Virus record (IMG/VR): IMGVR_UViG_2534681933_000025
Source of the DNA: a virus
Taxonomy: Duplodnaviria > Heunggongvirae > Uroviricota > Caudoviricetes
Reading direction: 5' to 3' (one strand)
Length of the DNA stretch: 46,697 bases
In this document: one piece after another, positions 1,553 to 6,413 of the stretch
How the letters are laid out: each line of letters opens with the position of its first letter
How positions within the stretch are numbered: position 1 is the stretch's first letter
Made by a program: the position numbers and the translations under genes
Notes under the pieces: generated by a model
Seen by the model: the letters and a program-made list of their open reading frames with translations, nothing else
Databases searched by the model: none
Told to the model about the DNA's origin: nothing

Positions 1553-1741
1553 TCACGAGGACTGAAGTTTCTCGCAATTAAAATTTATCAGTTTTACTTT
1601 CTGCTCTCTGGAAACGCCTGCTTCTTTTTTACCTGAGAGCATTTTTTCGCATTCTGATTTCGTTAGTTTAGATTTTGAATATCTTGTCCAGTTAGTAGGA
1701 GTGCCACCTTCCTTTTCAATAGTGGCGGTAATTTTATACAT
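1553..1741 (-). CDS. Hypothetical small protein (Rac YdaC-like)
   Basis: 62 aa from ATG MYKITATIEK...; start overlaps the stop of the full-length lar reading frame; function unknown. Confidence 0.4.
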   Translation of the reverse strand: MYKITATIEKEGGTPTNWTRYSKSKLTKSECEKMLSGKKEAGVSREQKVKLINFNCEKLQSS

Positions 1742-1778
1742 GAACACCTCCATTATTATTTCCAGTGGTTCGTTTATT

Positions 1779-1928
1779 TCATCGTTCGAGTGCTTCTTTT
1801 TCACTTCCACCATAACCGGTTCGGGATTCGCATCCGTTACACTTCGCTCGGTAATATCCTGAAATGGCTTTCACCGTTACTGATGGACAACCACAAAATG
1901 GACATGGTTTAACATTGTCATATCTCAT
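1779..1928 (-). CDS. lar: Lar-like restriction alleviation protein, truncated by in-frame TGA (full frame continues to 1734)
   Basis: Translation MRYDNVKPCPFCGCPSVTVKAISGYYRAKCNGCESRTGYGGSEKEALER then TGA; same frame continues NKRTTGNNNGGVHV to TAA at 1734-1736; Cys-rich Lar-family signature; alternative upstream ATG at 1938-1940. Confidence 0.55.
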   Translation of the reverse strand: MRYDNVKPCPFCGCPSVTVKAISGYYRAKCNGCESRTGYGGSEKEALER

Positions 1929-1983
1929 AATTTTTCTCATAAAAATATTTCAAGTTGGCGGTGCATTACACCGCCAGGCTGAA

Positions 1984-2793
1984 TTATTCCTCTGAATTAT
2001 CGATTACACTGTATTCCCCGGTTAATACAGAGGAATCTGCAGGATCGATTGTCAGTGGTTCCTTTTCATCCATTGATACTGCACGCTGGATCTCAATTGA
2101 TACGGGCAGATATTTGAACAGGCGACGAATAGCCGTTTTCTTTGCCATTTCTTCCCAGTGAGTTACCCACGGCCCGTTATTACCAGCTTTACTCTGGCTG
2201 CGCACCAGCTCAATCTGTTTGCGCGTCATAACTTCAAACTGAGTACCTCCGTCTTTCAGTCTTGCGACAGCATAGACGTGGGTAACAGGGGCATCTTCGT
2301 TTTCTCCTGGGCGGTGTATTAACTTTTCATCAAGGCCAAATTCGAAATTAAACTCGTCACCTTCACGGACAACACGGGCTGACAGGCTGGCGATTTGACC
2401 TGAACGGCGAGCCAGATCAATCATGCCGCGATAGCCAATGATTAGCTGAACGTTTTTTTTACCGCTCTTTTCGTTTTTATTACCAAAAGGCAGTAAATAT
2501 GCATGACCGAGGGCGCTACCGGGCTCAAGTCCGAGCTGTGAACACTGTACGATTGCACTGACAAAACTCATAGTGTCACAGTTTCCTAACGCCGGAACTT
2601 TACGAATTTCTGTGGTGGCGATACGGATCATACGTTCAGCCGTCATATGGCGTGGAAGAGCTGCTGCCAGTTGCTCTTTCATTGATGGCTGGTTAATAAA
2701 ACTAATCACGTCGTTATTTTTAATTGCTGCTGGTGCACGGTTTCCCTGAGTTTTTTGCAGATCGGCTTTTGCGATTGGTGGTTGCTTAGTCAT
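1984..2793 (-). CDS. recT: RecT single-strand annealing recombinase
   Basis: 269 aa from [16 protein letters not shown]...; matches E. coli Rac RecT over full length from memory; overlaps recE stop. Confidence 0.9.
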
Positions 2794-5458
2794 TTGCATA
2801 TTCCTTAGCCCAGCGGGGCAGTGATAACGTCTTAATAGCTGGCCATTCATCGGTATTGAGGCAGTCAGCCAGGGTTCGCAGATTGCGGTGATATTCCAGC
2901 TGACCTGCCAGTTTTGCTTCTTCGCCCATCATGAAAATTTCAACCGGATAACGTCCGCATTCAATAGTTGTGCTGGCAACCAGAAAAACGAAAGTTGGCT
3001 GCACTCCAAACTGTGCTTCATAACCGTCACTGTAGAATGCATCCTGAACGTGATAGCGGTAGTCGTAATAAGCGGTTTTGAATCGTTGAATATCCGCCGT
3101 AGTTTTCACGTCCATGATCCAGTGAAATTCAGGGATAATTTTGTCCGGACGGCACCGACACAAAATTGCTGTTTCAGGATCTTCCCAGTAAATTGATGAT
3201 TCAGCGTGTCCGGCGCTTTCAACAAGCCATTGCCCCAGCGGCAAAGCCATAACGCTCTGATACATGAGTTCAATTTTCCGGCCTTCTTCGGCAGTGATAA
3301 CCGTTTTTCCTGTGCTTGCGCATTCCCTCAGAAACGCTTTCTCTTCTTCTTTTCCGGAGTTTGTCCGGCGGTTAAATTCAGGTGCTACGATAAAGCGGTT
3401 ACTGAATTCTTCCGGCTCAAGTACCCGGCAGTGGAAAGCGGTTCCTAAATCGAGCGTTTTTGTCTTTGTGGTGTCCACGGGGGCATTTTTACGCCACAAA
3501 TACAGTGCCGGAGTATCAGCAATGTCATCGAGCTGAGACTTACTGACACCGGGACCCGCGTGGTAATTCTCATTCGAAATTCCGTAATAAATACCTGGCT
3601 CTATGTCTTCTACGATTACGGGATCTGCGACTTCGCCAGTTTCATCACTGCAATCGCGATGCGGATCGCTGCCAGCATTCTCATTGTGCGGATGTTCAGC
3701 GCCTTCCATTTCCTCCGGATCTTTTTCCTTAGCTTCAACCTGATTCTCTTCACCGAATGTTTCCTGGTATGTTGCGTCGCCCATCACCGCGCCACAATCA
3801 GGGCAGTTGCCGCCACCGCTCTGACCGCAGGCGGTGCAGACTTTTTCCGGTTCCTGTTGCGCTACTGGTTCGGATTGTTTCGTTTCTGGCTCGTTTTGTA
3901 ACGCATTTGGGCTGTTTTGTTCCGCTTTTTGGTCGTTCCGTTCCGATTCATGCTGGTTCTGGTTCACAGAATCGCGAGTCTGGATCCCCTTGACCCATTT
4001 CGGATCATTAGGGTCGCTAATCCCCTCAACAAATTCACCACGCGATACAGCAAGTAACTTATCGGCGCCAGGCTGGCTGATATTGGCTGCCTGCATAATT
4101 TTGTTTACTTCGTCAGCGGTGACTTTTACTTGGTTAGCGGAACTCACCTGCGACTGAGCATCCAGCGACTGCGCGTTCTGGCCATGTTCAGTTGTATCCG
4201 GTTCCATTGTTTCAGTTGTTGCCTGTTCACCTGCCATTGCGTCAGATGGTTGTGGTTTTTCTTCTTCTGTTTCACGCTCAGTAACCACCTCGCGGTTAAT
4301 TTCTTCCAGGATATCTTTTTCCGGTGTATGCCGGGCAGCTGTGAGAGTTTCCTTGCTGGGGTTCTCGTGATCAGTTTCCGTCAAATAGGCGTTGATATAC
4401 CCCTGAAGGCGTCCCGGGTAGTGATAAAATTCAGGGTGTGCGCTTCGGATAAGTGCAAAAATAGCGGCGCGGGAATAGTCCAGAATACCCGGGGTTGCGC
4501 GAAGTGCTGCGGACCATTCTTTGAACGGACTTTCTCTTTTCAGGACGATTTCTTTTGCGCGACGATAAACGCTGCCCGGAATTTCATAAATATTAAAATC
4601 CATCGGAAGTGTGGCTGCTGCAATCTCCACATCCAGCGTATCGAAGGTGTGTACTAAATTCGGATTGCGATCGGTTTTGTTCCCGCCACCGGCATTTGCA
4701 CCGGAAGCCGTACGGGTGATACGCGAAACACGATTTCCTTTCATCCACTCTTTTGTCAGCAGACCCCGATCAGTGTAGTCAGCGTCCAGGTATGCCTCGA
4801 AAAAAGCAGTTATCAGTCCCAGGTCTGAATTACCGGGATTAGGGAAAACTTTGTCAGTGTCGCGTGCCAGTTTATGAAGGTCGCGAATCTCCAGCGGGTC
4901 GAGCAGCTTTGTGTTGTGGGAAATGGCCAGGGCAGTAACAGCCGGCAGTTCTTCCGCCCGTGCTATATGTAATGCCTGAAGTTCTTCCCGTGCAACGTGC
5001 GTTACTGGTTTTTCGCTGCCGTGTTGCGCAAGCCAGCGAATGGGCAGCTCCTGACCAGAAACCGGCAGGAGCATATTCTCCTCAATCTCCGTCATGTCTT
5101 CGCCGTTGACGTTGGTATTGTCAGTACTGGCTGGTTTCTCCTGCACGGAGGGAGAGGGCGCGATAAATACCATTGTAATGCCATCTTCCCCGCCTTTTTC
5201 GTATCGGTTGCAGAATTCGGTATCAAACACGCCTTCAGGTGGAAGGTCATTCACAACGGGTAAATGGACGCGAACGGGTTTTTTAAAGTCGTCTTCATCA
5301 TAATCGTTGTCATCCATTGCGGTAATGCAGCGGGAGATGGCAACAGATAATTTTTTTGCTGTAGTCCAGTAAAAACCACCTTTAATTCCCAGACGTTTTC
5401 TGACTTTGTCATTTTTTGCTTCGCAATATAGCGCAAATTCTTCTTTATCAGTGCTCAT
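2786..5458 (-). CDS. recE: RecE exonuclease VIII
   Basis: 890 aa; C-terminal two-thirds recognisable as Rac RecE (e.g. ...[26 protein letters not shown]...RWAKEYAND); N-terminal region appears divergent. Confidence 0.85.
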
Positions 5459-5739: not shown

Positions 5740-5924
5740 TGACGTTCTCCGAAAATACCAAGTTCAAGAAGAGCAATTCGGGAAAGTATGGAATTATCAT
5801 TGAGCAGATAAGGCTCATATTTCCTCATATTAATGGCATCTTCAGTAAACTCCCGGTTACTGAGCAGAACACCAATATCAAAACAACCTTCAGACGTATT
5901 AACGTTTGGTAATAACGTTTCCAT
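5736..5924 (-). CDS. Hypothetical small protein
   Basis: Start chosen at ATG preceded by GAGGA SD (METLLPNVNTSEG...); ORF track allows a longer 97 aa form from 6029. Confidence 0.35.
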   Translation of the reverse strand: METLLPNVNTSEGCFDIGVLLSNREFTEDAINMRKYEPYLLNDNSILSRIALLELGIFGERQ

Positions 5925-6413
5925 TATCGCGTCCTCAACAATGAATTTTGTGATGCGGTGCCTGGTGCCTCCAGGTGACGTTAACCAGTTAACAATTAAC
6001 GCCGGATACAGAGAATCCACCCATAACACTGTTTTTGGTTTTAACTGTTCCGCGTGCGCTGAGCCGCATTCACCGCATCACAAAATTCACTTTAAAAAGG
6101 GCGGCAGAGCAGCCACGGAGTAAAACTGATACCGCCAAACGTCACCAGAAAATTGATAACAGAGGGCGTTGCAGCGGGGTTGTCACTTAAGCGTATGGTC
6201 AACCTGACAACCCGGTGTCCTCAACGGGGGAAGGGATAACCCCGCCATACTTACCGCCGCGCCATTTCGCGGATTGCCACAACCAGAAGCGCACGGTCGA
6301 AGAAATTTAACGACAAGACTTATATGCAAAGGGATCTCGCCGTGCGCTTTCGTGTTATGCCCTGACTTTTCAGGGTAAATTAACCTGTGGAAACCTGTTT
6401 TTACTGGCGCTAA

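Follow-up and report, generated by a model that had tools for sequence, protein, structure and literature searches.

A widespread and probably inactivating nonsense allele of ralR (lar) in Rac-like prophages of Escherichia coli

The window, a stretch of 46,697 nucleotides, is the O55:H7 copy of a Rac-like E. coli prophage integrated at ttcA, and ralR lies in the left arm. Its first 25 kb match E. coli O55:H7 strains RM12579 and TB182A at 100% identity, and identity is likewise 100% between its ralR region and those of O157:H7 (Sakai-type RIMD 0509939) and O55:H7 CB9615. The gene order at ttcA is recE-recT-ralR-rcbA-xisR-intR, the same as that annotated in O157:H7, O55:H7, O111:H11 and K-12. 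In the list of open reading frames, recE (2786-5458, minus strand) and recT (1984-2793) lie on one side of ralR, whereas xisR and intR (1-1236) are the neighbours on the other side. The recE gene encodes 890 aa here and in O55:H7 CB9615 (2,673 nt); in K-12, Sakai-type O157:H7 and O111:H11 it encodes 866 aa (2,601 nt), an in-frame difference of 72 nt from the window. The DicF sRNA is found at 6099-6150 (minus strand; RF00039, 75 bits against a gathering threshold of 48). It is adjoined by an STnc100-like match at 5892-6101 (minus strand), which at 37.7 bits scores below its gathering threshold of 47.

The ralR (lar) gene is encoded on the minus strand. Its frame starts with an ATG at 1928, runs for 49 codons and ends with a TGA at 1781-1779 (coding sequence 1779-1928; RefSeq WP_001443846.1). 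From the annotated start the product, MRYDNVKPCPFCGCPSVTVKAISGYYRAKCNGCESRTGYGGSEKEALER (MRYDN...), is thus 49 aa long, versus 64 aa for its K-12 counterpart. Beyond the TGA the frame stays open as NKRTTGNNNGGVHV until a TAA at 1736-1734, and the minus-strand translation of 1734-1940 reads MRKIMRYDNVKPCPFCGCPSVTVKAISGYYRAKCNGCESRTGYGGSEKEALER, stop, NKRTTGNNNGGVHV, stop. This orphaned in-frame tail (1734-1778, minus strand) comprises the former codons 51-64 and the TAA, is identical to K-12 and overlaps the start of the next gene, rcbA/ydaC, whose ATG is at 1741-1739. The original prediction had described a TGA followed by an in-frame continuation to a TAA overlapping the next gene, and translation confirms this arrangement. 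An alternative in-frame ATG (1938-1940, minus strand; MRKIM...) lies four codons upstream of the annotated start. It is used in some database models, among them that of protein P0009, and not in RefSeq; the original prediction likewise had 1940 as its start coordinate.

Over 551 nt the ralR locus shares 99.3% identity with K-12 Rac, and the stop falls exactly on the codon for Trp50, which means that chance is no concern for this stop. Along the ralR-rcbA stretch, K-12 MG1655 and the window are distinguished by four differences in and around both genes and by one additional substitution downstream of rcbA. One of the four is in a T-run upstream of ralR (approximately 1941-1945, minus strand), in the recT/ralR intergenic region just upstream of the alternative ATG; it has five T in the window, as in O55:H7 and O157:H7, and six in K-12. 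Two are adjacent codons of ralR. Codon 49 (1782-1784) is CGA in the window versus AGA in K-12, a synonymous change (Arg), and codon 50 (1779-1781) is TGA versus TGG. The fourth is in codon 63 of rcbA, TGA in the window and AGA in K-12. Residues 1-49 of RalR and the 45-nt stretch 3′ of the premature stop are identical in the two, and the gene has the same position in both prophages, whereas the K-12 protein has Trp50, the W-N-K-R sequence and the full C-terminal helix that the window product lacks. A change of TGG to TGA, giving a Lar protein of 49 instead of 64 aa, had been proposed from the window alone, and the alignment with K-12 Rac lar, in which TGG stands at the stop codon and is followed by the identical tail, bears this out.

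The neighbouring rcbA/ydaC gene (1553-1741, minus strand) encodes a DUF1187 protein of 62 aa (Pfam PF06688, 132 bits, in agreement with the annotation). It ends with TCG-TGA (stop at 1553-1555) in the window and in the divergent alleles, whereas in K-12 the stop is replaced by AGA and the frame continues to 69 aa. We considered this TGA as a second truncation and rejected the idea, the TGA being ancestral and the K-12 form a derived stop-loss extension. The Shine-Dalgarno sequence of rcbA, GGAGG at 1751-1747, is situated inside the orphaned ralR tail. Thus, loss of the ralR/rcbA stop-start overlap need not stop translation of rcbA, which would still have its own GGAGG.

Antisense to rcbA lies the antitoxin sRNA RalA, present in full length at 1557-1735 on the plus strand (Rfam RF02694, 225.1 bits against a gathering threshold of 170, model positions 1-179 of 179), and over this range the window does not differ from K-12. 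By primer extension, the start of RalA transcription was placed 62 nt upstream of its repeat (Guo et al., PMC4041452), in agreement with the Rfam start at 1557. The 16-nt site in the ralR mRNA with which RalA pairs (AAGTGAAAAAGAAGCA; 1791-1806, minus strand; PMC4041452) is also identical to K-12 and occurs as a direct repeat with the complementary RalA segment (1619-1634, plus strand), the two matching at 13 of 14 positions over the gap-free core (1791-1804 and 1619-1632). The last base of the pairing site is 9 nt (codons 48-50) upstream of the TGA. A disturbance of RalA or of its target by the two ralR substitutions can be set aside, both being outside RalA and downstream of the 16-nt site. 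The locus, therefore, combines an intact antitoxin and target site with a truncated toxin frame. Among the sigma-70-like matches of the region, the best, at 1491-1518 on the RalA strand (TTGACG, 16-nt spacer, AATAAT; 10 of 12 positions), ends approximately 39 nt upstream of the RalA 5′ end and is thus misplaced for a RalA promoter.

The distribution of the premature stop was assessed with 74-nt diagnostic queries, for which exact matches were counted in 5,426 complete E. coli genomes. The window type, with CGA-TGA at codons 49-50, yields 310 exact matches and the K-12 type, AGA-TGG, 1,118, versus none for the intermediate CGA-TGG in the same set of genomes. The divergent E. coli ralR alleles of 2011C-4315 and O139:H1 W13-16 (~91-94% identical) both have AGA-TGG. 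At the protein level, the homologues of E. marmotae, E. albertii, Salmonella and Citrobacter share the sequence R-W-N-(K/R)-R. Since the divergent alleles carry AGA-TGG and the protein homologues carry R-W, both substitutions found in the window are derived, and the complete linkage of CGA and TGA points to a single origin of the allele. On these comparisons, the TGA allele is a derived form that arose once.

Carriers of the TGA allele include O157:H7, O55:H7, O111:H8 and O111:H11 as well as many unrelated isolates with genomes of 4.8-5.2 Mb from human, animal and environmental sources. In all three carriers examined with 4-kb flanks (O111:H11, KY 1497 and WP7-S18-ESBL-09) the prophage is located at ttcA. 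Two different ttcA/dbpA allele sets are found among these three, from which it follows that the allele has passed from lineage to lineage together with the prophage arm or through recombination. At least 1,000 contigs encode the exact 49-aa protein, and the carriers are 100% identical over 551 nt. No further decay of the TGA allele is seen, although a divergence as low as ~0.7% would leave decay undetectable. Of the 310 exact haplotype matches, one is on a record classed as a plasmid.

To place the stop in the context of the family, a full-length homologue was used as a query against 1.84 billion representative proteins, which yielded 1,690 members. Conservation was evaluated in 61 single-domain representatives (95 aa or shorter) taken from the best 150 of the 1,690 matches and aligned to K-12 RalR. 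W50 and N51 are present in 61 of 61 and R53 in 60 of 61 representatives, and these three residues are as conserved as the zinc-binding cysteines C9, C12, C30 and C33 and the P10-F11 pair. The window frame keeps the zinc ribbon (C-P-F-C-G ... C-x-x-C, with all four cysteines), the feature that, followed by a helix, typifies the Lar family (PF14354, TIGR03655). By contrast, the invariant W-N-x-R motif that closes the C-terminal helix in the family is absent from its product, the stop taking the place of W50. The product is also shorter than every representative examined. With 49 aa it falls short of a full domain of approximately 54 residues or more. We can thus discard the idea of a natural short form of the family, and with it the possibilities that reference Lar proteins end at this position or that the TGA is a consensus residue. 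All 61 representatives extend at least to K-12 position 54, and all have Trp at the position of codon 50. Positions 55-64 of the K-12 protein, on the other hand, are not conserved among the 61.

Despite the loss of the motif, the truncated protein remains above the cut-offs of all three curated profiles. In the case of Pfam PF14354 the full-length protein scores 53.5 bits and the truncated one 39 (cut-off 28.6). For NCBIfam NF007260 the corresponding scores are 166 and 126.9 bits (cut-off 113), the truncated protein covering profile positions 1-49 of 64. For TIGR03655 they are 55.3 and 40.3 bits, the latter barely passing the cut-off of 39.6. Because the scores stay above these cut-offs, annotation pipelines report the gene as intact.

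In the AlphaFold2 model of the full-length homologue P0004, based on this family alignment (mean pLDDT 78, and 86-89 over residues 11-50), a beta-hairpin (strands 17-22 and 25-30) is followed by a single helix at residues 43-54. Since the helix spans these residues, the stop at codon 50 cuts the sole predicted helix in half and deletes W-N-x-R. The 16-nt repeat region corresponds to codons 42-47, that is, to the start of this helix, and a non-synonymous change in that region abolished RalR toxicity (Guo et al., PMC4041452), which supports a functional role for the helix part of RalR. A sequence search of the PDB for RalR relatives gave only spurious matches to CbpD, and a Foldseek search of the PDB with the P0004 model recovered only generic zinc ribbons (E >= 0.1), such as those of eIF2-beta, Elf1 and RPC11-type proteins. 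The predicted RalR fold is a plain zinc ribbon with one helix and without likeness to a nuclease fold, which is odd for a reported non-specific DNase.

RalR of the K-12 Rac prophage and the sRNA RalA form a type I toxin-antitoxin pair (Guo et al. 2014, PMC4041452), and expression of the 64-aa RalR causes a ~10^3-fold drop in CFU (Guo et al., PMC4041452). [quoted passage not shown] The identification of the gene as lar in the original prediction holds, whereas its designation as an anti-restriction gene has to be qualified, as the gene is now known as ralR and described as encoding a DNase toxin, and Guo et al. 2014 (PMC4041452) dispute the anti-restriction role. Phage lambda Ral has restriction alleviation (type IA) as its historical phenotype and a similarly small size; however, the two proteins share 24% identity and were judged unrelated by Guo et al. 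(PMC4041452). A parallel to the state of the locus is offered by the inactive hok homologues of E. coli K-12 (PMC4041452), in which a chromosomal toxin is likewise disabled while its RNA partner persists. Unlike in the hok homologues, the lesion in the window is a single nonsense codon common to many lineages, and RalA may be preserved through its overlap with rcbA.

Taken together, we consider it highly probable that the window carries a heritable ralR/lar nonsense allele of single origin that is most likely inactivating. A G-to-A transition turned the Trp50 codon TGG into TGA once, linked to the synonymous A-to-C change four bases upstream, in a Rac-like prophage integrated at ttcA. The product is shortened from 64 to 49 residues, keeping the CxxC...CxxC zinc ribbon and losing the second half of the helix together with W-N-x-R. 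Both the DNase toxin and the Lar restriction-alleviation activities would probably be lost or strongly weakened, whereas RalA and its target site are retained, plausibly since RalA lies antisense to the conserved rcbA. The allele, which is probably neutral or mildly advantageous, has reached several E. coli lineages, carried by the prophage or through recombination. The sequences themselves establish the mutation and its polarity, the single haplotype and its broad distribution, the absence of the invariant residues and the integrity of the antitoxin, whereas loss of activity and the selective value of the allele are inferred. Judging from the family-invariant residues that are missing and from the predicted fold, loss or strong reduction of function is likely. 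Several observations call for caution as to inactivation, among them that all three profile cut-offs are still passed and that NCBI annotates the gene as intact. The protein keeps its zinc ribbon, which accounts for the greater part of the domain, and residues 55-64 are unconserved; residual or altered activity is possible. In the literature searched we found no functional assay of the 49-aa RalR, and no report of the O157 truncation or of any C-terminal mutagenesis of Lar/RalR.

Several other explanations were weighed against an inactivating nonsense mutation. The original prediction had left room for a sequencing or assembly error, with TGG as the true codon and an intact gene. Nothing speaks for such an error beyond its a priori possibility, and it is refuted, given that the same TGA-bearing 74-mer is found in 310 complete genomes that were sequenced independently, that the 49-aa protein recurs on at least 1,000 contigs and that TGA never comes without a second substitution nearby. 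Another idea is that the 49-aa protein was selected as a separation-of-function variant, keeping one activity and losing the other, for instance zinc-ribbon-mediated binding of DNA or HsdM, or alleviation of restriction in the absence of DNase toxicity. The protein does keep the ribbon and 44 of the ~50 domain residues, its profile scores are above the cut-offs, the allele reaches an appreciable frequency in several lineages, and a Lar homologue makes a difference to phage fitness on certain hosts (PMC11482910). Yet the invariance of W50, N51 and R53 equals that of the zinc ligands, which argues that the family needs them for whatever function it has, and none of the 61 representatives examined is as short. 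Hitch-hiking with the prophage in EHEC clones that have been sampled intensively would account for the frequency of the allele just as well. We regard separation of function as quite improbable.

The remaining alternatives concern the stop codon itself. TGG to TGA is the sole nonsense change whose natural near-cognate suppression restores the original amino acid, and the allele could in principle be leaky, with Trp-tRNA(Trp) reading UGA and full-length RalR made at ~1% or less of the normal level, giving a down-tuned toxin and not a null. The 14 codons and the TAA after the stop are intact and identical to K-12, as such leakiness would allow; however, an intact tail is uninformative at so low a divergence, and it overlaps the ribosome-binding site of rcbA. 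The predicted fold of the downstream 76 nt (-8.3 kcal/mol, z = 0.07 relative to shuffled sequences) is without stimulatory structure, and no stable RNA element was found within 30 nt downstream of the UGA. The window comes from O55:H7, which presumably has the more active, non-K-12 type of RF2. UGA is the leakiest stop codon in E. coli, its readthrough by Trp-tRNA(Trp), in competition with RF2, amounting to ~2% at 37 °C and ~4% at 25 °C in K-12 reporters (PMC10570021). In the window the UGA is followed by an A, a context (UGAA) to which RF2 binds with comparatively low strength (PMC5373646), whereas the non-K-12 variant RF2-B terminates fast at UGAA, with the NudL readthrough product vanishing (PMC5373646). 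On balance, a leaky allele has a low probability and physiologically meaningful readthrough is unlikely; that the allele specifies a ~100-fold down-tuned toxin, variable from cell to cell and retained in EHEC and others for that reason, is very doubtful. Programmed recoding of the UGA, as selenocysteine or otherwise, and selection of the TGA for a new rcbA promoter receive next to no credence. No structure supports a selenocysteine or stimulated-readthrough element, and the sequence 3′ of the codon is the same in K-12, where the codon is TGG. A sigma-70-like match at 1782-1755 (minus strand; ATGAAA, 16-nt spacer, AATAAT; 9 of 12 positions) does include the TGA in its first hexamer, and TGG would score one match fewer. 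However, matches of this quality occur at chance level (4 found versus 1.9 ± 1.2 expected), and the predicted transcription start would fall badly, inside the rcbA Shine-Dalgarno sequence.

Under the preferred reading of an inactivating nonsense allele, one minor consequence is for annotation. The gene, its partner RNA, the mechanism and the prophage are already known (PMC4041452; PMC4632033), and the allele itself is already in RefSeq and UniRef. WP_001443846.1, the 49-aa RalR of O55:H7, O111 and the O157:H7 Sakai/EDL933 prophages Sp10/CP-933R, is the identical allele, and in O157:H7, O55:H7 and O111:H11 genomes it is annotated as an intact, non-pseudogene RalR toxin with the truncation unflagged. 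RefSeq and UniRef label the 49-aa protein 'endodeoxyribonuclease toxin RalR' in hundreds of genomes, including those of reference O157:H7 strains, and surveys of EHEC toxin-antitoxin systems are probably in error where they include it among the functional toxins. In the literature searched, no description was found of this widespread form as a truncation without the family-invariant residues. What we report is an ordinary, widely distributed nonsense polymorphism of a known gene, an annotation note and not a discovery, and it leaves the current understanding of the RalR/RalA system unchanged. The allele provides a natural truncation for probing the W-N-x-R helix end and the separability of the toxin and restriction-alleviation phenotypes, and the perfectly linked CGA-TGA pair is a convenient marker by which the transfer of the Rac-like left arm from one E. 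coli lineage to another can be traced.

Other variants of the locus were met in the database sequences. In E. coli M18 (locus L009, NZ_CP010219.1) a 12-nt in-frame deletion (AAGAAGCAGGCG) in rcbA/RalA, at approximately 735-746 of the locus and corresponding to approximately 1614-1625 of the window, takes out the larger part of the RalA pairing repeat, in a locus whose ralR is full length (WP_001317028.1). Judged by its sequence, the M18 locus looks like a toxin without a matching antitoxin site. In proteins P0012 (67 aa) and P0015 (96 aa), residues 1-47 of RalR are fused to the RcbA C-terminus (…SEKEAGVSREQKVKLINFNCEKL…), a fusion such as a 172-nt deletion between the repeats at 1791-1804 and 1619-1632 would produce; it is a second, independent route to the loss of W-N-x-R. 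Protein P0005 (69 aa) keeps W-N-K-R-T and continues with an unrelated tail of 15 residues, suggesting a rearrangement after codon 54.
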